Below, one piece after another: positions 1,213 through 40,088 of a stretch of 64,000 bases of DNA. Origin of the DNA: an uncultured Gammaproteobacteria bacterium (lineage in GTDB: Bacteria > Patescibacteriota > Microgenomatia > Woykebacterales > RBG-16-39-9b). The notes beneath the pieces are model-generated. The model was not told where the DNA came from. It did no database searches and worked only from the letters and a program-made list of their open reading frames with translations. Within the stretch, counting starts at the first letter, position 1; each line of letters opens with the position of its first letter. Where the stretch lies: the NCBI GenBank assembly GCA_964360785.1, contig CAYHXX010000002.1, positions 28,107 to 92,106 on the forward strand, written 5' to 3'. The position numbers and the translations under genes were made by a program.

Positions 1213-2928
1213 TTAGATCTCGACAATAACTGGCACAACCATAGGTTTCCGCTGCGTTTTTTGGTAGAGAAAGCGCTCGAGGTCATTGGTGACCTTTTCT
1301 TTTACACTCATCCAGTTTTTTATCTTGTTACCACCATTCAGAGATTTCTTGATCACATTTGTTGCTTCTTTGATCAAAGGTTCAGATTGTTTCATATAAA
1401 CAAACCCACGGGAAACCAGATCCGGCTCTCCAATAATAGCTCCTCGAGCTTTATCGATGGTAAGGATAACGACTACAATCCCTTCTTCTGCCAAAACTTT
1501 GCGGTCGCGCAGCACCACTTCACCAACATCACCAACACCAATACCATCAACAAAGATATTTTCAGTGGGTATCTCTCCTACAATCTTGGCTCCCTGTTCA
1601 CTAAACTCTATTACCCCAGCTTCATCAACTATTAAGACGTTTTGTTTTGGGATCCCAGTACTTTCAGCCAATACCCCGTACTGTTTCATCATTCGATGCA
1701 TCGCTGAGATAGGAACAGCGTATTTTGGTTTGGTCAAGGAAAGCATCAAGATCAGCTCGTCTTGGGCAGCGTGCCCAGAGACGTGGAAGTCAGAAGTGAT
1801 ATCAGAATAGAGAACATTGGCTCCGAGTCTTGAGAGATTATCAATCATTTCATAAACGGCGTCTTGGTTCCCTGGGATTGGGTCAGCCGAAAAAACAACT
1901 TCGTCGCCTGGTTTGATACAAATAAAACGGTGATCGCTGTTGGCAATTCGATTTAGAGCACTACCCGGTTGTCCTTGGCTGCCAGCAACGATTAAAGTCA
2001 AGTTCTTATCGTTAGTTCGTTCGATTTCCTCTTGTTTAATGAGAAGATCCTTCGGGATTGAAATGTAGCCGAGATTTTGGGCGGTAAGCAAATTATTGTC
2101 CATGGACCGACCGACAACACAAACCTTGCGGTGAAACTTGATGGAAGCGTTTATAGCTTGTTGGACTCGGGAAATGTTTGAAGCAAATGTAGTGATTATT
2201 ACCCTTCCTTTGGCATTCTCCATCACTTTCTCAAACTTTTCTTGAATTGCTGCCTCCGAAAGTGTGTTACCAGGCTTTTCGCTACGTAAACAATCACTCA
2301 TGAGAGCGAGAACTCCTTTTCGTCCATACTCAGTCAAAAGATCAACATCTGTGGTTTTCCCATCGAGCGGTGTCCAGTCAAATTTGTAGTCTCCAGTGTG
2401 GATAGTAGTACCAAGTGGGGTGGTAAGAGCGTAGCCGACAGAATCTGGTATCGAGTGGCTTACACGAAACGCTTCGACTCGAAATGCTCCCAGATTAAAC
2501 TGCTCCCCAGGATTAATCTGAACAATTTTAGTTGTATTGAGTTTATTGGCTTCCTTAAGTTTATTTTTAATCAAACCGACAGTTAACCGAGTGGCATAAA
2601 CAGTTGTGTTTAACTTATCAATCAAATAAGGAATTGCGCCAATATGGTCTTCATGGCCGTGAGTGATAAGTAAACCCCGAATTTTCTTTTGTTTATCTCG
2701 CAAATAGGAAACATCTGGAATCACCATATCCACCCCATAGAGCTGCTCACTGGGAAAACCCATACCGCAATCAACTAAAACAATGTCGTCACCATATTCG
2801 TAGACAAACATGTTTTTGGTAACCTGACCATTACCTCCAAGAGGTATGAACTTTAAAACTTTTTTATTTTGTTGACTATTCTGAGAATTAAATTTTTTAT
2901 CCATAACTTTGTTTATTTTAGTCTTCAA
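1213..2928 (-). CDS. rnj: ribonuclease J (beta-CASP metallo-beta-lactamase RNase)
   Basis: HGHEDHIGAIPY motif, beta-CASP layout, 571 aa. Confidence 0.85.
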   Translation of the reverse strand: MKTKINKVMDKKFNSQNSQQNKKVLKFIPLGGNGQVTKNMFVYEYGDDIVLVDCGMGFPSEQLYGVDMVIPDVSYLRDKQKKIRGLLITHGHEDHIGAIPYLIDKLNTTVYATRLTVGLIKNKLKEANKLNTTKIVQINPGEQFNLGAFRVEAFRVSHSIPDSVGYALTTPLGTTIHTGDYKFDWTPLDGKTTDVDLLTEYGRKGVLALMSDCLRSEKPGNTLSEAAIQEKFEKVMENAKGRVIITTFASNISRVQQAINASIKFHRKVCVVGRSMDNNLLTAQNLGYISIPKDLLIKQEEIERTNDKNLTLIVAGSQGQPGSALNRIANSDHRFICIKPGDEVVFSADPIPGNQDAVYEMIDNLSRLGANVLYSDITSDFHVSGHAAQDELILMLSLTKPKYAVPISAMHRMMKQYGVLAESTGIPKQNVLIVDEAGVIEFSEQGAKIVGEIPTENIFVDGIGVGDVGEVVLRDRKVLAEEGIVVVILTIDKARGAIIGEPDLVSRGFVYMKQSEPLIKEATNVIKKSLNGGNKIKNWMSVKEKVTNDLERFLYQKTQRKPMVVPVIVEI

Positions 2929-3553: not shown

Positions 3554-3619
3554 AATCGAGTCTTCAAGATTATATGACGCCTCAGCGACATATATTCAAG
3601 CCATCGAAAAAATATAGTG

Positions 3620-5713
3620 TTACCCTTCAAACTTCCGGGTTAGATTGAGCCTGCCCTTTTCATCCACCTCTTTGACGATCACATCAATTTTTTGACCCAA
3701 CTTAACTTCGCGATTTATATCCTCAACCCGGTACGGAGCGATTGCCGAAATATGAACCAAACCCTCTAGCCCTGGCATAATCTCCACAAAAGCCCCAAAC
3801 GGCATTATTTTTTTGATCGTTCCAGAAAACTGTTCCCCTGGTTTTGGTTCGTGTGTCAAACCATCAATAATTTTCATGGCTTCTTCGGTTTTCTCTGGGT
3901 CGTTTCCGGAAATCATCACCGTACCATCATCTTCGATATCAATCTCGACGCCAGTATCTTCGATAATCTTATTGATTGTTTTACCACCAGTACCGATCAC
4001 AGCACCGATTTTCTTTGGTGAAATATGCATGACACTCACTCTTGGAGCGTATTTGGACATATCTTCACGAACCTTGGGCATTACTTCAAGCATCTTGCCG
4101 AGAATGTGATCGCGCCCAACTTTTCCATCTTTGAAAGTTTCTTTAACCATTTCTATTGTCAGCCCGTCAATTTTTACATCTAGCTGGATTGCGGTAATAC
4201 CTTTTTCTGTTCCGGCAATCTTGAAGTCCATATCGCCATAAAAATCTTCGAGTGCTTGAATATCTGTCAGAACTTTCCAGGTATCACCTTCTGTGACCAG
4301 CCCCATGGCAATACCAGAAACTGGAGCTGAGATAGGAACACCTGCGTCCATCAAAGCTAGTATTGATCCACAAGTAGATCCCATTGAAGTTGATCCAGAA
4401 GAACTCATTACCTCAGAAACTACTCGCACAGTGTAGGGAAATTTATCCGATGGCGGCATTACATTTACCATAGCTTTCTCCGCAAGTGCGCCATGACCAA
4501 TTTCGCGTCTTCCAGGAGTACCCATACGACGTACCTCTCCAGTAGAGAATGGTGGGAAGTAGTAGTGGTGCATGAAACGTTTTGTTTCTTCACCTTCCAT
4601 AGTGTCAATCATCTGCTCAAGTGACGTAGATCCGAGAGTAGCTACTGACAAAACGTGGGTCTCACCGCGTTTGAAAAGTGCAGAACCATGAGTTCGTGGT
4701 AACAAACCAACCTCAACCTCGATCTTACGGACATCCTGTGTTTTACGTCCATCTGGGCGCTTACCTTCGTCAATAATAGCTTCTCGCACCATTTTCTTCA
4801 CAGTTTCTTCAAAGATCTCGGTCATTACATCTTTGGAAAGCTTACCTTCATAGTCAACAAAGATTGCTTCTTTCAGCTCTTCAGCGGCTGTCTCACGATC
4901 AGCTCTTTCTGCGTTAAACAACTTTTCCTTGAAGTTGTCTTTGATGTGCTGAACAATTTCTTTCTTGAGCTCCTGATTAACCTCTTTGATTTCGTAAGAA
5001 TGGTCAACCTTTCCAACTTCCTTGACCCATTGATCAATAAAGTCAAAAACTGGCTCAACGCTCTTTTTGGCAAACTCAATTGCCTCGAGAACTGTCTTTT
5101 CTGGAACTTCTTTGGCTTCCGCTTCGATCATAACTGTTTTATCGCGGTTGAAAGTCACCAGCAGTTGCAATTCGCTTTGTTCCTCCTGAGTATGGGTTGG
5201 GTTTAGTACAAACTTACCGTCGATAAGTCCGACTGTAGCCGAGGCTACTGGACCCTTCCAAGGTACGCTGGAACTTTTGATGGCTGCTGAAGCGGCAATC
5301 AAACCAAGGTTGGCGGCGTCGTTTTCCATATCATAAGAAAGTACAGTGATGATCACTTGGACTTGATTGAAATAATCTTTGGGAAAAAGGGGTCTGATGG
5401 AACGGTCGATCAATCTGCCCGAAAGTATGGCATTCTCAGTCGGACGACCTTCGCGTTTGATAAATCTCGATCCAGAGATTCTTCCGGAAGCGTAAAACTT
5501 TTCCTCAAACTCAACTGAGAGTGGAAAGTAGCCCAGGTCTTCTGAGGCTTGCGCGTGAACTACGGTAACTAGTACAACGGTATCACCATATTGGGCAAGA
5601 ATCGTACTATCAGCTTGGGTCTCAATCCGACCGGTTTCAAAGCTTAAAGTCCGACCTCCCCAGGTAATTTCTTTTTTAATAACACCTTGGTTTTTAGCAG
5701 ATTTTTCTGTCAT
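3620..5713 (-). CDS. pnp: polynucleotide phosphorylase
   Basis: 697 aa. Two RNase PH domains plus KH and S1 at the C-terminus (GEQFSGTIKKIMPFGAFVEI). Confidence 0.9.
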   Translation of the reverse strand: MTEKSAKNQGVIKKEITWGGRTLSFETGRIETQADSTILAQYGDTVVLVTVVHAQASEDLGYFPLSVEFEEKFYASGRISGSRFIKREGRPTENAILSGRLIDRSIRPLFPKDYFNQVQVIITVLSYDMENDAANLGLIAASAAIKSSSVPWKGPVASATVGLIDGKFVLNPTHTQEEQSELQLLVTFNRDKTVMIEAEAKEVPEKTVLEAIEFAKKSVEPVFDFIDQWVKEVGKVDHSYEIKEVNQELKKEIVQHIKDNFKEKLFNAERADRETAAEELKEAIFVDYEGKLSKDVMTEIFEETVKKMVREAIIDEGKRPDGRKTQDVRKIEVEVGLLPRTHGSALFKRGETHVLSVATLGSTSLEQMIDTMEGEETKRFMHHYYFPPFSTGEVRRMGTPGRREIGHGALAEKAMVNVMPPSDKFPYTVRVVSEVMSSSGSTSMGSTCGSILALMDAGVPISAPVSGIAMGLVTEGDTWKVLTDIQALEDFYGDMDFKIAGTEKGITAIQLDVKIDGLTIEMVKETFKDGKVGRDHILGKMLEVMPKVREDMSKYAPRVSVMHISPKKIGAVIGTGGKTINKIIEDTGVEIDIEDDGTVMISGNDPEKTEEAMKIIDGLTHEPKPGEQFSGTIKKIMPFGAFVEIMPGLEGLVHISAIAPYRVEDINREVKLGQKIDVIVKEVDEKGRLNLTRKFEG

Positions 5714-9768: not shown

Positions 9769-9882
9769 AGTGGGACGTTATCCCACTTAAAGTAAGGCTA
9801 ATTAAACTAGTTGACAATATAGCACTTGGAACCTCGCTGGTCAAGACCGTTGGTACTAGTTTTTATTAATTGGCAGTGCTAT

Positions 9883-9911
9883 TGACAAATTTTTGCCTCA
9901 AGCATAAAATC
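9883..9911 (+). promoter_or_regulatory. sigma70-like promoter for the tRNA operon (TTGACA-17-TAAAAT)
   Basis: TTGACA at 9883-9888, 17-nt spacer, TAAAAT at 9906-9911, about 15 nt upstream of the first tRNA. Confidence 0.45.
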
Positions 9912-9925
9912 TGCAATTGTGTGCT

Positions 9926-10000
9926 GGTCCTGTAGCTCAGGGGTAGAGCCGGAGATTCCAAATCTCTAAGTCGGAGGTTCGATTCCTCCCAGGGCCGCCA
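9926..10000 (+). tRNA. tRNA-Trp (anticodon CCA)
   Basis: Cloverleaf folded by hand: acceptor GGTCCTG/CAGGGCC, T loop TTCGATT, anticodon loop TTCCAAA, encoded CCA end. Confidence 0.8.
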
Positions 10001-10002
10001 AC

Positions 10003-10077
10003 GCGGAAGTAGCTCAGTGGTAGAGCACTAGATAGGGGATCTAGGGGCCACACGTTCGAATCGTGTCTTCCGCTCCA
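10003..10077 (+). tRNA. tRNA-Pro (tentative anticodon GGG)
   Basis: Acceptor GCGGAAG/CTTCCGC, T loop TTCGAAT, CCA end. The anticodon arm CTAGA-TAGGGGA-TCTAG gives GGG with G37, but an unusual A at position 33. Confidence 0.6.
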
Positions 10078-10107
10078 AGAGAGATTCCTCCGCTTTGTCG
10101 GAGTAAA

Positions 10108-10183
10108 GGGTGCATAGCTCAACTGGAAGAGCGTTCCCTTCGCAAGGGAAAGGTTGGAGGTTCGAGCCCTCTTGCATCCACCA
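10108..10183 (+). tRNA. tRNA-Ala (anticodon CGC)
   Basis: G3:U70 identity pair in the acceptor stem. Anticodon loop TTCGCAA, T loop TTCGAGC, CCA end. Confidence 0.8.
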
Positions 10184-10186
10184 AAC

Positions 10187-10299
10187 ACCGATGTAGCTCA
10201 GTGAAGAGAGCGCCATTTAAGTCTTGCTTTGTTCGGTGGACGGGACCGAGCAACAGAGAGCATTGGAGGTCGGAGGTTCGAATCCTCCCATCGGTACCA
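10187..10299 (+). tRNA. aberrant 113-nt tRNA-like gene with an insertion of about 37-40 nt between the D arm and T arm; isotype undetermined
   Basis: Canonical acceptor ACCGATG/CATCGGT, D arm GCTC-AGTGAAGA-GAGC, T arm GGAGG-TTCGAAT-CCTCC and CCA end, but 59 nt where an anticodon arm and variable loop would normally take about 22 nt. Confidence 0.5.
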
Positions 10300-10512
10300 A
10301 AAAGATTCCTCCGAGTTTTCGGAGTTTGACTGTTCCGGAGCAAGGCTGCTCCTGACAGGGCGTGGTGGACAAGCAAAAGTCTTTCGGGAGAACTGACCGC
10401 TGTCTGTCTACCACGCCACCCAACGTTTGGATCACCTGGGTCTCTTTCCCCAGTGGTCTGCTGATTTGAGCTCGGACTGCCCCTCTAAGCTCTGGTCAGC
10501 CCCTCCCCTGTC
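10300..10512 (+). ncRNA. candidate structured RNA or leader (unassigned), co-oriented with the tRNA operon
   Basis: Locally G+C-rich with no ORF. Contains a 13-bp stem GGCGTGGTGGACA...TGTCTACCACGCC and hairpin GGAGCA-AGGC-TGCTCC. Ends at an intrinsic terminator. Confidence 0.3.
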
Positions 10513-10556
10513 GGCCCCTGGGATGACTTTACACTCGTCCCCGGGGCCATTTTTTT
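10513..10556 (+). terminator. intrinsic terminator (GGCCCCTGGG...CCCCGGGGCC stem followed by ATTTTTTT)
   Basis: 10-bp GC-rich stem followed by a T-run. Confidence 0.55.
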
Positions 10557-10610
10557 GACAAAAATATTTTTCACTAATACAATTCGCTCATTCTAAGTAG
10601 GAGGAGTTCT

Positions 10611-10847
10611 ATGGAAGACGTAACGCGTCTTGAAGACATGTCGGTGAGAGGCCGCTTAACCTTATCTTGGCAGGACGATGGAGATATCTGCATAACTGTC
10701 ATCGAAGATAGCGGAAGGAGTGCTGGCATTGAGTTTTGTAACACTGGTGGGGGTGGTGGTCAATCTCCCAATACTTTGAGGGCGTTGAGAGAACTCTACA
10801 AAGCAATGCAAAAAGACAACCAAGATAATCCGATTACGCGGGGTTAA
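10611..10847 (+). CDS. hypothetical small protein (78 aa, Gly-run TGGGGGQS)
   Basis: Strong SD: AGGAGG lies 6 nt upstream of the ATG. No recognisable family. Confidence 0.4.
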   Translation: MEDVTRLEDMSVRGRLTLSWQDDGDICITVIEDSGRSAGIEFCNTGGGGGQSPNTLRALRELYKAMQKDNQDNPITRG

Positions 10848-15081: not shown

Positions 15082-15645
15082 TTATCCTATCGCACCCAAG
15101 ACTTTTTCGAAGATCTTTTTGTGGCCCGCTGCATTTGGATGATCTCCATCATTATAAAAATCATCTCTTGTTAAAACTCCAAAACAGTCGGCAAATTTGA
15201 GGTTTCTTTCTTGGGAAATTTCTTTAATCACTTCATTGTATTTCTTAATTTCTTCGTTTCTATAACCAAACTTGTTACTCTCCTCATCAATATTGTTAAG
15301 TTCAACTACTACAATATCCTTAGTAATTTTTTCTGCTTTATCCAAAAGCTCTTTATAAGAACTTTTAAACTCGTCTATTGGTGTTCCACCTGGGTTGTCT
15401 ATGTTTGTACTGTCATTAATTCCAATGGAAAAAATAATCTTATCTGGTCGGCGAGCGTCAACCTCTAGATCAAATCTTTTCAAAACGTCAGACACTCTGT
15501 CTCCGGAAACTCCGCAGTTATACACATAAGTTTCAGGATCATTATCAAAGAAATGCACTTTGAGCCGCTCGACCCAGCCTCCGGATTCTAGATCAAAAGC
15601 TCCCCAAGTTATACTATCCCCAAAAACACATATTCTATTGCTCAT
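15082..15645 (-). CDS. SGNH/GDSL-family hydrolase
   Basis: ICVFGDSITWG (GDS block I) and DGDHPN (DxxH block V). Confidence 0.7.
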   Translation of the reverse strand: MSNRICVFGDSITWGAFDLESGGWVERLKVHFFDNDPETYVYNCGVSGDRVSDVLKRFDLEVDARRPDKIIFSIGINDSTNIDNPGGTPIDEFKSSYKELLDKAEKITKDIVVVELNNIDEESNKFGYRNEEIKKYNEVIKEISQERNLKFADCFGVLTRDDFYNDGDHPNAAGHKKIFEKVLGAIG

Positions 15646-16097
15646 TCCTTTTTTTCTTCGTCAACTACTTCACCTTCAAGTTTTGTATCTATTCCTATTC
15701 TCAAAAACCCATTCTTCTTGTAATCTGCATCAAAACTAAAAATTTCTTGCTTATTTCTTTCCTTCAGTATTGCGATATTAACCATATCGGTAAATCTGGA
15801 ATTTTTTGAAGCTTGATTCTTGAAAACTTCAAATGCTTGATTTCTCAATTTTGTATCTACCTCAACTATTTCCACCTGGCTATTCAAAATCTCGTTAGCA
15901 AAATTTACTGCAGCAGCATGACCAACGTTTTGGCTGATAACTGTGATTGCTTCACCAAAGGCTGGATCCGATGTAACCGTCCCACAACCAACAGCGCTAG
16001 CTACACTACTAACTGCGACAGCCAGTTTGTGATTTGAGTCTTTGGAGTCTACTAGTGCTACAAAGGCATCAGCGTCGACGAAGAGTTCTTTTTCCAT
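15642..16097 (-). CDS. vapC: PIN-domain toxin (VapC-like). The start is probably at the internal Met (MEKELFVDAD), not the upstream ATG of the ORF-track entry.
   Basis: LFVDADAFVAL N-terminal PIN motif and C-terminal SFDADY. The last 10 residues ([10 protein letters not shown]) are encoded by a duplicated dnaK tail. Confidence 0.6.
   Translation of the reverse strand: MEKELFVDADAFVALVDSKDSNHKLAVAVSSVASAVGCGTVTSDPAFGEAITVISQNVGHAAAVNFANEILNSQVEIVEVDTKLRNQAFEVFKNQASKNSRFTDMVNIAILKERNKQEIFSFDADYKKNGFLRIGIDTKLEGEVVDEEKKE
15650..15678. repeat. direct repeat copy 1 (TTTTCTTCGTCAACTACTTCACCTTCAA); duplicate of the dnaK 3' end
   Basis: 28/28 identical to 16431-16459, plus flanking GTTTTG similarity. 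Confidence 0.75.
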
Positions 16098-16338
16098 AGT
16101 TCGGGGACTTACTACCATATAAGTAGGAGTTAATATTCGTGGAAAGGTTACCGGGACCAGCTGTGGCTTTTGCAGCGATCTTGAGCAAAACATCAGCCGG
16201 AGATTCGCTTGTCTTTTTTCTTAAACCAGATTTTAAAAGCTCCCTGATTATTTCAGCCTGTGGTTTATCTTGTTTCTTGGAAAGAAGGTTAATCTCCCGA
16301 TCCAGAGTCTCGGTAAGATATATTTGTTTTCTTTTCAT
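16069..16338 (-). CDS. ribbon-helix-helix (CopG/VapB-like) antitoxin
   Basis: KQIYLTETLDREINLLSKKQDKPQAEIIRELL has an RHH beta-strand/helix pattern. Sits immediately upstream of, and overlaps, the PIN gene. Confidence 0.55.
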   Translation of the reverse strand: MKRKQIYLTETLDREINLLSKKQDKPQAEIIRELLKSGLRKKTSESPADVLLKIAAKATAGPGNLSTNINSYLYGSKSPNYGKRTLRRR

Positions 16339-35459: not shown

Positions 35460-36362
35460 ATGACCGATATCCGCCAATGTCGTCTTTGGGCAAGCTTTAT
35501 GGAAGATCTGGGTTGGGGTGTTGAGAATATCCGCACTCGCGACAAGGACAACTTTGTTTACCTCAAAAAAATTCCTTTATTTGGTACCATCCTCAAAGCC
35601 CCGAGAATTTCTTTGCCGCTACCTTTTTCTGAGATTGAAGCTTTAGCTAAAGACAAAGGTGTCTTTTTTTCAAAAATTGAGCCAAAAACTTCTCTTCCGA
35701 ATTCCAAAGTCCTTTCCGAGCTCAAGGACTCTGGTTACGCTAGTGAGCGCTGGTCGCTCCATCCCACCAAAACAATTGTTCTGGATCTGCGTAAAAGTTC
35801 TGACGAGCTGCTAAAAAATATGGAAAAAGATACCCGCTACAGCATCCGAGCTTCACAAAGACGCGGAATCAGAGTAGTCAAAAGTAACGATCTCAACCGC
35901 TTTCTCAAACTCTACCGTGCTACTGCCAAACGCCAAGGTTTTTGGATCCCGGAAAAGGACTTAGGCTCCTTGTGGGACATCTTTTCCAACGAAGGCAAGG
36001 CTTTTATTCTGATTGCTGTTTGGAATCACACCGACATTGCCGGTTGTTTGATCCTGCATCATGAGAAAAGTGCTTACTATTATCACGCGGCTTCACTACG
36101 AGAATATAAAGAATTCTTTGCGCCATATTTATTAATTTGGGAAAGTATGAACCAAGCCAAAAAACTAGGGCTAAAAGAGCTCGATCTGGAAGGCATCTAC
36201 GATCATCGGTTTCCAGCCACCAACAAATGGAAGGGTTTTACTCATTTCAAAAAAGGTTTTCGCGGTGAAGAAGTCGAGTTGCTAGGTTCTTTTGTCAAAA
36301 ATTACAATCCAATTCTTTCGACATTTTATAAAGTTTCCAACTTCTCCCTGAATTTTAGGTAA
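35460..36362 (+). CDS. FemAB-family peptidyl/aminoacyl transferase (peptidoglycan cross-bridge formation)
   Basis: KDTRYSIRASQRRGI and the overall FemX-like pattern. Confidence 0.55.
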   Translation: MTDIRQCRLWASFMEDLGWGVENIRTRDKDNFVYLKKIPLFGTILKAPRISLPLPFSEIEALAKDKGVFFSKIEPKTSLPNSKVLSELKDSGYASERWSLHPTKTIVLDLRKSSDELLKNMEKDTRYSIRASQRRGIRVVKSNDLNRFLKLYRATAKRQGFWIPEKDLGSLWDIFSNEGKAFILIAVWNHTDIAGCLILHHEKSAYYYHAASLREYKEFFAPYLLIWESMNQAKKLGLKELDLEGIYDHRFPATNKWKGFTHFKKGFRGEEVELLGSFVKNYNPILSTFYKVSNFSLNFR

Positions 36363-36420
36363 AAGAAAGCCGCTAGTTCATGCCTGGCTGGCACAAACGT
36401 AGCGGCCTCCTCTCTCTTTT
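36361..36420. terminator. bidirectional intrinsic terminator between the FemAB-like gene and the GC-rich large gene (GCCGCTA...TAGCGGC)
   Basis: 7-bp stem at 36369-36406 with T-rich tracts on both strands. Confidence 0.45.
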
Positions 36421-36432
36421 CCTCCGATCTCT

Positions 36433-38766
36433 TTACTGCTTGATGACGACGATGGTCTCACCGCAGTTGGCGCAGGCCTTGGCAGTGAGAGCGTTCTTGT
36501 ACCCGCATCCGGCCGTGCAGTAGATGAAGTCCCTTGCAGGCTGAGCCGGGGCGGGGGATGTCGTCGGTACCGGAGCCGGCGTTGGTGCTGGCTCTGGCGC
36601 GGGCGCGGGGGCCGGAGTCGGCCTTCCCGTTACCCTCACCGACTTCGTCTTTGGCCCTGGGGCGGGTGCGCTAGCGGCGGCGGCCTTCCTTGCTGCTTCT
36701 ACCACCTCGGGGGGAAGCTCAGCAGCAACGGAACCATCTTCAGGCTCCACCACTGCCTCTTCCTTCGGCAGCTCGCAGCCGCACTCGTCGCAGCGCTTGC
36801 GACCAGGCTGCGCTGGTGTCTTGCAGTTCGGGCAGACCCTTTCCTGTGGCTCGACGATGGCGGCGGGTACGGGGACCGTTGCCAAAGTGCCACACTCGTC
36901 GCAGCGCTTGCGCTCCGGCGCGATCGGCCCGCCGTACTGCACACAGTCCGGGTTCGGGCAGACCTTACCGTCGCCATTGGCCCCAATGGCCTTCATCTGC
37001 TCGGCGACACCAGCCAGGGTGGCCACGTCCCCTAAGGTGGCTGGCTGGACCTCGTCCTGCTGCGGCCCAAAACCGAGATCCCACGACCCTTCGGACGCGA
37101 TCGCATCGATCTCCTTACTCCGACTCACGGTCTGCTCGACATTCGAGGCTTCCGCCACGAGCGTGCGGGCTCCGTTGATCAGAGTTCGTGATTCGACGAG
37201 CGGACTCCTTTGGGCATGAGCTACGCTCGGGTTGTCGAAGTTCTGCCGGTTGGCCACCAGGTTGTCGATCTTGCTCAAGACTGAGCGTCCGGGCGGTGTT
37301 TCGGCGAAGGGTCCGACCGCGTGCTGAGCGTCAGCAATGAACTTGTCGATCTGCTCAAGATTGGCGTCGATCTCCTCGACGGCCAACGAAGCCTCGTACA
37401 GCTCCTCTGCCCGACCAACCAGCTTGAAGGACCCGCCACGCTTCTCACGGGGTGCTGACCCCTTCAAACGCCTTAGCTCGACTTCAAGCTCGCTTGCCTC
37501 AGCAAGGAACCGCTGTGCGTAGCCGTTGTCCGGAAATGCGCCGACCGCCTCCTTGGCCGCACCGACAAAGCACGTCGTCGCCTCAAAGTCAACCTCGGCT
37601 CGGACATCGCGAGCGGCACTGACACTGAGCGTGTAGTTCCGCGCCGGTAGGTGTTGTTGGCGGATCTCGCTGAGTTTGTCCTGAGCCTTCTTGCCGACTT
37701 CACTGGGGTCCCATTTGGGGTCAGCGGCCCGCGCCTTCTCGACGACCTCCTTGATGTGCTCGACGACGCTGAGGATCTGCTGATTAGCGTTGTTCGTCGC
37801 ACAGCTGTCACACCCTTCGACCTGGTTTTCGCGGTCGATGTAGTAGGGCGGGCGGTCTTTCGGGATCGGTTTCAAGCACGGCTCGCCGCTGGGGAGTGTG
37901 TTCTGACACTCTTTCGTTTCGGTCGTCTGCACGGTCACTTCTGCTTCCCTTTCCTCGTGCGTTCGCACGACTACTGACTTGACGCTTGGACTGTGATGTA
38001 CTGCCATTTCTGGCTCCTCTTCTGTTGTCGCAACTGCGGTTGCTCCTCCTTTCGCAACCAAATCAGTCCAGTACTTACTTGCGATTCTGGTTATCTCGTC
38101 CGTCGAGAACTCACTGTTGCGTGTTTCCCAACCGTAAACAGAAGACTCAACCTCTGCCCCGTCCGGGAAATAAACGATCCTGCGGCACTCGCGTGCTATC
38201 TTGATCGTTCTAATCTGCTTTGGCCACGTGATACCCTCCACAGCGGGCAGTTCTGGCTTCTTACCAACTGTGTTTTGGAGAATAGTGATGTTTCGGTTCA
38301 TGAGCGCGACCAGAAACTCAATATCTCTCACGATGTTTCGAAGTTGGCGCTCCACCTCCCTGTTTGGGCCAGAATGTTTGATCTCAACTAGACCTACAAC
38401 CCAAGCGGTTTTGGCTTCGATACTGATGAGAATCCCGTCTGGGTTGTGAAATGCGAGTTTCGGATAGTCAGAGAAAAACGGGGAGCGTGTTCTCAGAAAT
38501 GCCAGAAAGTAATCAGCCACTACCTGCTCTTCAGCAGACATTTGCCTGCCTTCATAATCTGGCGCACTGAGTACAAGCTCTTGAAGAACTCTTCCTCGCT
38601 TATCTGAGATGGTTGGTTCCTGTGAATTATATGTAATTGTTCGGGTGCCTAGGTCATGAAGGTTCGCTGTTTGTAGCGCTCTTTTATCCGGTGTCAGATA
38701 GGGTCGAACCGGGGTGATATGCGCTACGACCTCAGAAACCCAGTGATCGACATCGCGAATACTCAT
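36433..38766 (-). CDS. G+C-rich foreign-looking protein of about 778 aa: N-terminal PD-(D/E)xK nuclease-like domain, long Ala/Glu-rich central region, Pro/Ala linker, three C-terminal zinc ribbons. Start taken at MSIRDVDHW.
   Basis: HNPDGILISIEAKTAWVVGLVEIKHS (PD...ExK). CPNPDCVQYGGPIAPERKRCDECG, CPNCKTPAQPGRKRCDECG, CTAGCGYKNALTAKACANCG. SD GGAAGGAGG lies 8 nt upstream of the ATG at 38764-38766. The ORF-track start 38874 is upstream in AT-rich DNA and unlikely. Confidence 0.55.
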   Translation of the reverse strand: MSIRDVDHWVSEVVAHITPVRPYLTPDKRALQTANLHDLGTRTITYNSQEPTISDKRGRVLQELVLSAPDYEGRQMSAEEQVVADYFLAFLRTRSPFFSDYPKLAFHNPDGILISIEAKTAWVVGLVEIKHSGPNREVERQLRNIVRDIEFLVALMNRNITILQNTVGKKPELPAVEGITWPKQIRTIKIARECRRIVYFPDGAEVESSVYGWETRNSEFSTDEITRIASKYWTDLVAKGGATAVATTEEEPEMAVHHSPSVKSVVVRTHEEREAEVTVQTTETKECQNTLPSGEPCLKPIPKDRPPYYIDRENQVEGCDSCATNNANQQILSVVEHIKEVVEKARAADPKWDPSEVGKKAQDKLSEIRQQHLPARNYTLSVSAARDVRAEVDFEATTCFVGAAKEAVGAFPDNGYAQRFLAEASELEVELRRLKGSAPREKRGGSFKLVGRAEELYEASLAVEEIDANLEQIDKFIADAQHAVGPFAETPPGRSVLSKIDNLVANRQNFDNPSVAHAQRSPLVESRTLINGARTLVAEASNVEQTVSRSKEIDAIASEGSWDLGFGPQQDEVQPATLGDVATLAGVAEQMKAIGANGDGKVCPNPDCVQYGGPIAPERKRCDECGTLATVPVPAAIVEPQERVCPNCKTPAQPGRKRCDECGCELPKEEAVVEPEDGSVAAELPPEVVEAARKAAAASAPAPGPKTKSVRVTGRPTPAPAPAPEPAPTPAPVPTTSPAPAQPARDFIYCTAGCGYKNALTAKACANCGETIVVIKQ

Positions 38767-38797
38767 TCGGATGCCTCCTTCCTCACTTATGAGGCCT

Positions 38798-38825
38798 ATT
38801 ATACACAAAAAGTTGTAAAAGTCAA
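38798..38825 (-). promoter_or_regulatory. sigma70-like promoter of the large GC-rich gene (TTGACT-16-TATAAT on the minus strand)
   Basis: Minus-strand -35 TTGACT at 38820-38825 and -10 TATAAT at 38798-38803. AT-rich, unlike the ORF. Confidence 0.5.
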
Positions 38826-38857
38826 TCCTATAGCAGTTGTCGTGTGATTCTGGGCAT

Positions 38858-38879
38858 AAAAAAACTCCATCCAATGGAG
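38858..38879 (-). terminator. intrinsic terminator downstream of the small zinc-ribbon gene (CTCCAT-TGG-ATGGAG plus TTTTTTT on the minus strand)
   Basis: Hairpin followed by a 7-T run on the minus strand. A second upstream hairpin GGGAGACAG...CTGTCTCCC at 38903-38941. Confidence 0.5.
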
Positions 38880-39039
38880 TTAATTACTTTAAAGATATAG
38901 GTGGGAGACAGTTAGCGCGAGGCTAAACCGATCTGTCTCCCCTGGCGTCCTTCCTGTCTCGGTAAACAGGCACATGAGCTTACGTCATGACAAATCTCCT
39001 GGCCACAGTCTTGTGGCTAACCGCTCACCGTGATGGAAG

Positions 39040-39443
39040 CTACTTGCGCTTCCCCCCGTGAGCCATCTCCTGGTCGTGGCTGCGGCGTTCGGATTGCCGG
39101 GCACGCCATCGCTCCTTCTTGGCCATCTTCCGCACCTTGCGGTTGGCGGCCTCGATGCGGTCGCTGCTGGACTGCTCCGACAGTTCCACGATGAGCTCCT
39201 GGGCCCTGACGAACTTGCCGTTCGTCTTGGCTGTGACCGCCGCGAAGAAGAGTTTCTTCGCCACCGATCCGAGCTCACGCGGGTTGAACCGCCTGAGACT
39301 GCTCTCGACCTGAGAACAGAGGCTCCGGCAACGGCGGCACGTGCTCACGTTGCGGTCCTCGGCCTCGAGGTCTACAACGAACCCCGTATCGCACGAGCGG
39401 CACAGAGTTTCCACTTCAGCCTTGCCGAAAATCGTAACCATTT
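39040..39443 (-). CDS. G+C-rich small zinc-ribbon protein with basic C-terminal tail (about 133 aa; start at MVTIFGKAEV)
   Basis: CRSCD...CRRCRSLC zinc-ribbon-like spacing. Lys/Arg-rich C-terminus (RKVRKMAKKERWRARQSERR). GC-rich third codon positions. Confidence 0.45.
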
Positions 39444-39644
39444 CGTGTCCCCTTTCACAGGAACAACTCACACTTTAGGACGGGGTGAGTAACCGCTTTG
39501 GCTTGAAGCCAAAAAGCCATTCCAAAGGAAACCTTTGGAACAGCTTTATAGCCTCAACTTACCTTCACAAATTTGGCTCTTAAGTTTCGGGGAAGTTTGT
39601 ATTCACCTCCTTTTGATAGATATCCCGTAATTTCTTACGAGCCA

Positions 39645-39709
39645 AGTTTGAAAAGATAAAGGTTTAGGGCGGGTGGGAGGATACTTTGCATTGCTTTCTC
39701 CTCCCACCC
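39645..39709 (-). terminator. intrinsic terminator (11-bp stem GGGTGGGAGGA/TCCTCCCACCC) downstream of the 50-aa ORF on the minus strand
   Basis: Long GC stem at 39671-39709 followed on the minus strand by a T-rich tract. Confidence 0.4.
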
Positions 39710-39745
39710 ATGTGCCCCGCATGTTGTCGTCGCCGGCGTACCTGG

Positions 39746-39898
39746 TTAGCGCTTCTGAGCGGCCAGGGCCCGACAGGTCTGGGTGATCGCGTCGCCGTTG
39801 CCGTACACCCGTGTGGCAACACCACCCGGGAGAACGATCATGCGCGACGGGCCGGTGTTGAAGCTCTTGTATGATACCTTCTGACCAGAACGTGACAT
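39746..39898 (-). CDS. G+C-rich small ORF (about 50 aa, MSRSGQKVSYKSFNTGPSRMIVLPGGVATRVYGNGDAITQTCRALAAQKR); below the ORF-track length cutoff
   Basis: Consensus SD: AGGAGG lies about 8 nt upstream of the ATG. Followed by a terminator. No family recognised. Confidence 0.3.
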   Translation of the reverse strand: MSRSGQKVSYKSFNTGPSRMIVLPGGVATRVYGNGDAITQTCRALAAQKR

Positions 39899-40088
39899 GT
39901 TGGCGGGACCTCCTGTAAAAGCTGAGTCACCTCATTTTGGTGTCTCAAACCTCACTACTAGATAGGGAGATTTCAGATACCAAGACCTCTCTCAAAAAGC
40001 CTGATGCACCACTCAATCTTGATAAAAAGTATAGCACACTTTAGTCCTTTTGTCAAGTACTATGGGTTGTTCTCTGGGTTAGTGGTGA

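Follow-up and report, generated by a model that had tools for sequence, protein, structure and literature searches.

A tRNA-like gene with a hairpin-extended anticodon arm in a variable tRNA operon of Candidatus Woykebacteria

A 113-nt tRNA-like gene was found in a window of 64 kb (the whole stretch of DNA analysed here) from a member of Candidatus Woykebacteria (Patescibacteria), and, judging from its sequence, it is almost certainly unable to decode as it stands. We lean towards reading it as a lineage-specific relic, that is, a tRNA-derived, decoding-dead and still processable member of an accessory array with fast turnover. As in degenerate members of such arrays, its tRNA ancestry is clear, the decoding feature has been lost, the gene is missing from the syntenic loci of close relatives and its locus is in flux. 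The gene is real and unusual in form, and its context, a hypervariable tRNA cassette together with a conserved RNA of no known family, is more interesting than the gene alone.

The tRNA operon and its host

The closest relatives of the NusA protein encoded in the window belong to Candidatus Woykebacteria and other Microgenomates, and the genes near the tRNA-like gene encode RNase J, PNPase, S15, IF-2, NusA, DnaJ, DnaK, GrpE, HrcA, LepA and MurJ. The tRNA-like gene itself is part of an operon (Table 1), the sole terminator of which was located after the downstream RNA. Because the gene starts 3 nt past the CCA of tRNA-Ala and lies directly before the conserved RNA within one transcription unit, its position argues that it is transcribed and processed. 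The promoter at the head of the operon would thus drive the co-transcription of tRNA-Trp, 'tRNA-Pro', tRNA-Ala, the tRNA-like gene and the downstream RNA.

Table 1 Features of the tRNA operon and of the 113-nt tRNA-like gene (window coordinates)
Feature	Position	Strand	Remarks
Operon promoter, sigma-70-like, TTGACA-17-TAAAAT	9882-9910	+	11/12 matches; block conserved upstream of the L110, L001 and L005 arrays
tRNA-Trp(CCA), canonical, operon gene 1	9926-10000	+	64.7 bits
'tRNA-Pro(GGG)', loop UAGGGGA (A33, G37), discriminator U	10003-10077	+	Body orthologous to tRNA-Thr(CGU) of relatives
Spacer module copy 1 (repeat 10085-10103), hairpin CTCCG-CTTTGT-CGGAG	10078-10107	+	
tRNA-Ala(CGC), canonical, G3:U70, A73	10108-10183	+	Ends 3 nt (10184-10186) before the tRNA-like gene
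tRNA-like gene, 113 nt, operon gene 4	10187-10299	+	Rfam tRNA 51 bits; fold; identical copy in L081
Acceptor stem, 5' strand ACCGATG	10187-10193	+	7/7 pairs with 10289-10295
D arm GCTC-AGTGAAGA-GAGC, 4 bp	10196-10211	+	G19 missing from loop
Basal 'anticodon' stem, 5' strand CCATT	10213-10217	+	Pairs with 10262-10266, one U-U mismatch
44 nt replacing the 7-nt anticodon loop	10218-10261	+	Irregular closed helix of ~14 bp, extends the stem
Terminal loop UGGACGGGA	10237-10245	+	9 nt on 5-bp stem UUCGG/CCGAG; 7 nt (GGACGGG) if U-A closes
Basal stem, 3' strand ATTGG	10262-10266	+	
Variable loop AGGTC	10267-10271	+	Class I length
T arm GGAGG-TTCGAAT-CCTCC	10272-10288	+	
Acceptor 3' strand CATCGGT, discriminator A73, encoded CCA	10289-10299	+	
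Spacer module copy 2 (repeat 10305-10324), hairpin CTCCG-AGTTTT-CGGAG	10300-10330	+	Joined to the start of the downstream RNA
Structured RNA, ~225 nt, no known family	10331-10556	+	Intrinsic terminator: stem 10513-10548 plus T run, to 10556

A tRNA-like gene with an intact upper half

Read from the window, the gene has the layout ACCGATG-TA-GCTC-AGTGAAGA-GAGC-G-CCATT-[44 nt]-ATTGG-AGGTC-GGAGG-TTCGAAT-CCTCC-CATCGGT-A-CCA, and the acceptor stem, D arm, T arm and encoded CCA that had been described in an earlier, sequence-only reading were all confirmed. The acceptor stem ACCGATG/CATCGGT is entirely Watson-Crick paired (7/7, with A1:U72), no mismatch occurs in the 16 bp of the three stems (7 in the acceptor, 4 in the D and 5 in the T arm), and the T loop follows the consensus TTCRANY. 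The Rfam tRNA model (RF00005) scored 51 bits against a gathering score of 29 (E 5.3e-8 for the 64-kb window searched), and its alignment ran from end to end of the gene except for 48 nt that stood opposite 11 model positions of the anticodon arm. A further departure from the model tRNA was found in the D loop (AGTGAAGA), which has a single G in place of the expected G18-G19, the elbow contact with the T loop. Like the U-U mismatch of the basal stem and the absence of U33 described below, it went unmentioned in the earlier reading. The distance between the D and T arms is 60 nt, compared with 23 nt in a normal class I tRNA, which gives an excess of 37 nt. The insertion of about 37-40 nt proposed in the earlier reading was therefore upheld, and its spacing of 59 nt between the two arms was corrected by one nucleotide. 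No tmRNA or YrlA match was obtained for the gene in the ARAGORN tmRNA search of the window or in Rfam.

The same gene is present without any change in L081, a separately recorded 23.9-kb ENA contig originating from a groundwater sample, and the surrounding 1.5 kb differs from the window by 1 mismatch in 1500 nt. An assembly artefact is unlikely because the gene is identical in this independently recorded contig. Such an artefact would have fused one half each of two tRNA genes where tRNA sequence is repeated, and assemblies of this population do often break inside the tRNA array, since contigs L082-L084, L115 and L116 all end there. Against this, the two halves make a perfect 7-bp acceptor stem and so belong together, the same 1.5-kb region was recovered in the separate ENA contig, and no other match to the insert was obtained in the window or in the loci compared. 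We regard a chimeric origin as scarcely credible.

Structure and origin of the extended arm

The predicted fold of the whole molecule (-42.2 kcal/mol, z -2.8) is a cloverleaf in which the 'anticodon' arm forms one long irregular closed helix. When folded alone, the arm (10213-10266, z -2.1) was predicted to contain a 9-bp inner stem with the 7-nt loop GGACGGG or, alternatively, the 9-nt loop UGGACGGGA on UUCGG/CCGAG. An alternative register of the fold draws the variable loop into the helix, and the core geometry is uncertain for this reason. The inner hairpin noticed earlier, TTGC..TCGG-TGGACGGGA-CCGA-GCAA, is indeed present. The possible anticodon stem CCATT/ATTGG, proposed in the same reading, does flank the insert but contains a U-U mismatch.

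Some known structures that could resemble the arm were considered and rejected. The gene is not a class II tRNA with the hairpin as its variable arm, since no anticodon arm with a 5-bp stem and a 7-nt loop was seen upstream of the hairpin, either by eye or by ARAGORN. Inspection by eye also excluded a K-turn, for which the required G-A pairs are missing, and SRP domain IV, for which the GGAA/AGCA motifs are missing.

As to the source of the insert, neither a second copy within the 64-kb window nor a similar sequence in the fetched loci was found, and the 7-nt repeat AGAGAGC, which occurs in the D arm and at the end of the insert, is by estimate within chance expectation. The suggestion that the gene is an integration remnant received no support, as no insert repeat or source was found in the window or the fetched loci.

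Is the insert an intron?

A canonical anticodon arm, in which a stem of 5 bp closes a 7-nt loop with U33 and R37, is lacking in the gene, and 44-48 nt are found instead of the loop. All contiguous excisions that leave a 17-nt arm were enumerated; to count as legal, an excision had to give at least 4/5 paired positions in the stem, U33 and a purine as nucleotide 37. No solution was obtained for this gene, which has no usable register with U33. As a control, 15 of 23 insert-bearing tRNAs from metagenomes gave legal solutions in the same test, mostly with archaeal-type introns at canonical or non-canonical positions.

ARAGORN did not call the gene in its default mode. The intron search of ARAGORN, which the earlier reading had recommended as a check, does call it, but the product is a forced Ser(AGA) with a 37-nt intron at 33/34; the loop of the spliced form, UAAGAGC, has A33 and a Ser anticodon in a class I body without the long variable arm. 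Since the default mode skips the gene and the intron mode mislabels it, annotation pipelines may report a spurious intron-containing tRNA here.

Intervening sequences are unusually common in Patescibacteria, some of them being group I introns at odd sites within tRNA genes, and group I is the only kind of intron described in their tRNA genes (PMC13011429). The gene resembles these cases in that it comes from the same phylum, carries its insert in the region of the anticodon loop and is missed by standard annotation. The known group I introns of Patescibacteria, however, are full self-splicing ribozymes that interrupt the loop at fixed sites following a U, so that a legal loop of 7 nt remains, whereas the insert of 37-48 nt studied here shows no group I signature and would not leave any legal loop. 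No Rfam match to the group I intron (RF00028) was obtained for the gene even at E up to 10, and no contiguous excision of the group I type, after U, gives a legal anticodon loop. A group I ribozyme with its P1-P9 core is typically more than 200 nt long, a size that the insert misses by an order of magnitude.

Bulge-helix-bulge (BHB) introns of archaea and eukaryotes are closer in size, as they too comprise tens of nt, lie in or near the anticodon arm and pair with neighbouring sequence. The BHB scan gave one exact BHB-like register in the gene (gene positions 38-72), which would leave a 30-nt arm, and the scan is too permissive to be informative, as 98% of shuffled cores match. An archaeal-type intron is not supported, since no splice-competent register was found and the one exact register would not leave a 17-nt anticodon arm. 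The gene thus differs from BHB introns in lacking a productive BHB and a legal mature loop and in its bacterial host, and the archaeal-type examples from metagenomes resolve cleanly in the excision test that it fails. No splicing-endonuclease or RNA-ligase domain was detected in the 30 ORFs of the 64-kb window that were scanned against Pfam. With no legal excision, no group I match and no productive BHB, the option of an intron-containing tRNA raised by the sequence-only reading is not supported.

A working tRNA could still result if the insert were removed by a bacterial mechanism that has not been described, such as an RNase III-type excision followed by RtcB-type ligation, or two excisions flanking UUCGG-UGGACGGGA-CCGAG. 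The abundance of intervening sequences in Patescibacteria speaks for such a mechanism (PMC13011429). The loop rules of the lineage may also be relaxed, as A33 occurs in 'Pro(GGG)' and in Thr(CGU) of the related locus L110. In addition, there may be a likeness between the inner hairpin and the arm that bears the anticodon in E. coli tRNA-Arg(ACG), CUCGG-CUACGAA-CCGAG, with ACG at the centre of the loop. The inner loop of the gene has 9 nt, however, or 7 nt without U33, and sits on top of about 14 extra bp. Removal of the insert by new splicing is also opposed by the failure of every contiguous excision to restore U33 and R37, by the form of the ARAGORN product, by the size of the insert and its lack of a group I signature or a BHB in a productive register, by the lack of splicing-endonuclease and RNA-ligase domains among the 30 ORFs, and by the loss of G19 from the D loop. 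Taken together, these points make a spliced, working tRNA very unlikely.

A hypervariable tRNA cassette in related genomes

The locus was compared with those of three relatives, L110 (NusA 95% identical), L001 (86%) and L005 (74%), the cassette spans being 9880-10330 in the window, 2640-2960 in L110, 3830-4200 in L001 and 4160-4900 in L005. The promoter block and the downstream RNA are common to all four, and the tRNA content between them is completely different. The window has Trp(CCA), 'Pro(GGG)', Ala(CGC) and the tRNA-like gene; L110 has Thr(GGU) and Thr(CGU); L001 has 'Ala(UGC)', Val(GAC) and Thr(CGU); and L005 has a Lys-like gene, Pro(CGG), a structured RNA, a tRNA-like gene and Gly(UCC). 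The 113-nt gene is absent from the syntenic arrays of L110, L001 and L005, as judged from the synteny-anchored loci. Among eight closer relatives by NusA, the contigs either had no array, were broken inside it or carried other tRNAs, and some had unrelated genes upstream of NusA.

Several of the neighbouring tRNA genes are themselves defective. The 'Pro(GGG)' gene is the orthologue, in both position and sequence, of Thr(CGU) in L110 (loop UACGUAA, with A33) and in L001 (UUCGUAA, with a normal U33), so that the copy in the window either has undergone a shift of its anticodon or is decaying. The tRNA-like gene of L005 (4385-4453, minus strand; 54 bits) has an anticodon loop of only 4 nt (AAGU) and flanks the same kind of structured RNA, and the Lys(CUU)-like gene of the same locus (4720-4791, minus strand) has two broken pairs in the anticodon stem. 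In L001, 'Ala(UGC)' (4018-4093, minus strand) has C33, and G3-C70 instead of G3:U70. The defects lie mostly in the anticodon arm and the upper halves are intact, a pattern that is partly due to ascertainment because tRNA finders need an intact upper half. In the array of the window, however, no gap of tRNA size is left unassigned.

The other options of the earlier reading, an aberrant arm or a tRNA-derived, non-decoding gene, fit these results, given the closed hairpin extension, the absence of the gene from the relatives examined and the defects of its array neighbours.

The downstream RNA and the spacer module

The RNA downstream of the gene is strongly structured (z -7.66 for its minimum free energy) and conserved in L110 (about 2386-2618, minus strand) and L001 (about 3556-3815, minus strand), and 17 of the 48 pairs predicted for it show compensatory changes. 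No Rfam family matched it, and it is probably an undescribed non-coding RNA of Woykebacteria or of the candidate phyla radiation (CPR).

A spacer module of the form GAUUCCUCCG-N6-CGGAG follows 'Pro' and occurs again after the tRNA-like gene, and it was also found in L001 (about 3990-4015, minus strand). In L110 and L001, a hairpin of other sequence stands at the equivalent spot before the downstream RNA. The presence of the module after both 'Pro' and the tRNA-like gene suggests that tRNA-Ala and the tRNA-like gene may have been inserted together by recombination within the array.

Just past the terminator of the operon, a 78-aa ORF (10611-10847, plus strand) has a consensus promoter of its own at 10555-10583. 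Homologues of the ORF, at 53-54% identity, were detected only on phage-like contigs, beside holin and lysozyme genes.

Searches for homologues

The locus set comprised NusA-anchored loci from 80 genomes, which were checked by ARAGORN in intron mode, by BLAST and with a custom cloverleaf scanner. In 806 kb of related loci, the cloverleaf scan returned only the gene and its identical copy, and there is effectively one sequence of the gene (the window and L081). An exact pattern built from the gene's own D arm and T loop had no matches in the metagenome scan, a search that divergent orthologues could escape. With a generic D arm and the gene's T arm, the exact pattern gave 23 matches, none of them homologous to the gene; they comprised tRNAs with archaeal-type introns, partial duplications of the att type and a few unrelated tRNA-like genes with long arms. 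Three viral scans returned nothing related to the gene, E. coli genomes contained no match to it, a phage search with the stretch 9900-10600 matched only the neighbouring tRNAs, and the 78-aa ORF, when used as a search anchor, led only to phage-like contigs.

Long closed arms without a legal anticodon loop were found in three phage-like metagenome contigs, L098 (1909-2005, minus strand), L087 (1733-1825, minus strand) and L109 (467-550, plus strand), and none of these arms is homologous to the insert. The gene in L098 encodes its ACCA and is mismatched at 1:72, and that in L087 adjoins a DnaB-like helicase and small uncharacterised ORFs, which suggests a phage. In a further contig, from IMG/VR (L086, 3401-3823, minus strand), ARAGORN called a two-piece (permuted) tmRNA overlapping a tRNA-like element at its T-arm end; this element has a 29-nt insert after position 38.

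Relic or functional RNA

If the gene is a relic of the array, a self-complementary insertion of about 37 nt would have turned the 7-nt anticodon loop into a closed helix (about 14 bp) stacked on the old anticodon stem. The product would then have no U-turn, no anticodon and no legal excision, and its arm would greatly exceed the length that the ribosome can accommodate. The acceptor/T-arm half is the part of a tRNA recognised by RNase P and the 3' processing enzymes. They could still cut out the product as a stable, CCA-ended species of 113 nt, and any role that remains would most likely be the punctuation of processing, at the 3' end of tRNA-Ala and on the 5' side of the downstream RNA. Selection for clean processing of the neighbours would explain why a perfect upper half stands beside an unconstrained anticodon arm. 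Because the stems have no mismatch and the CCA has been kept, a purely neutral relic would need either young age or selection. It also counts against reading the gene as a relic that the insert is well structured and not random.

The gene could instead be a functional, non-decoding tRNA-like RNA, in which the long arm and the loop UGGACGGGA do the work and the upper half provides processing, CCA and stability. Such an RNA could possibly act together with the structured RNA, donate aminoacyl groups outside translation, or serve a nuclease or a tRNA-binding protein as decoy or partner. The perfect upper half with its CCA, the stable closed helix predicted for the arm and the shared transcription unit with the conserved structured RNA are all in its favour, as are the long-arm genes without a legal loop in L098, L087 and L109 and the position of the 4-nt-loop gene of L005 beside the same kind of RNA. 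Conservation speaks against it, however: the gene was found in no relative examined, even at 95% NusA identity, and neither the arm nor the odd D arm has a homologue in the metagenome and viral scans or the fetched loci. Evidence for an RNA partner is also lacking from the comparisons made, since sites complementary to the terminal loop are not above chance frequency in the window, and the insert is predicted to pair only marginally with the downstream RNA (equalled by 12 of 300 shuffles). Nor does the gene belong to an Rfam family of its own or match YrlA or tmRNA. On this evidence, we consider a functional RNA unlikely, though with a chance that is not negligible.

A stronger form of this idea would make the gene the first bacterial tRNA-scaffold RNA. 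Its upper half would be under selection for RNase P, the 3' enzymes and the CCA machinery, and its anticodon arm would have been rebuilt as a functional hairpin that works with the downstream RNA or punctuates it; the 4-nt-loop gene of L005 and the tRNAs with A33 or C33 would then be the same phenomenon. We hold this to be quite unlikely. A bolder variant would be a new pathway for the splicing of short introns in bacteria.

Comparison with known systems

Degenerate tRNA genes are known from accessory arrays. In cyanobacterial L-arrays, 3 of the 26 tRNAs of the operon could not be detected and were classed as pseudogenes (PMC8421152). Like degenerate tRNAs of accessory arrays, the gene described here is tRNA-derived, lies in a multi-tRNA operon and has lost decoding features, and its array likewise changes by insertion, duplication and deletion between relatives. 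Unlike the known array pseudogenes, its defect is a structured hairpin extension of 37 nt, with the other stems perfect and the CCA kept. The array also differs from cyanobacterial L-arrays in that it has only four genes, is fused to a conserved structured RNA and belongs to a genome-reduced Patescibacterium.

The tRNA domain of tmRNA, YrlA and mascRNA-type signals provide another parallel, as in these elements the upper half is kept for tRNA-processing enzymes and the anticodon arm is replaced. Elements of the mascRNA type punctuate a longer transcript, as the gene may do here. In contrast to tmRNA and YrlA, the gene matches no model and has no mRNA-like part. Its topology is also normal, with the ends at the acceptor stem, in which it presumably differs from YrlA.

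The intervening sequences (IVS) of bacterial rRNA are hairpin extensions that are excised by RNase III without religation. The gene is similar to them in that a helix of a stable-RNA gene has been prolonged by a hairpin inserted at its terminal loop. We know of no description of IVS-type excision for a tRNA, and without ligation it would yield two tRNA halves and no anticodon. In the literature, nothing was found on anticodon arms extended by a hairpin.

If the gene is a relic, it still gives an example of how the streamlined CPR genomes reshape and lose their tRNA genes. The occurrence of different and often defective tRNAs in the same promoter-to-ncRNA cassette matters for annotation and for estimates of completeness and of 'missing tRNAs'. 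If the upper half is under selection, the gene would be a bacterial tRNA-like element kept for RNA processing and not for decoding, and it would also point to the uncharacterised conserved RNA beside it.

Other features of the window

A PIN-domain protein of 183 aa, which may be a VapC-like RNase, is encoded a few kb from the tRNA operon (15642-16193, minus strand). Farther along the window, the region 36000-40000 forms a GC island (58%, compared with 41% GC for the genome) with an ORF of 813 aa (36433-38874, minus strand), the only Pfam signal of which is a weak match to a double zinc ribbon.
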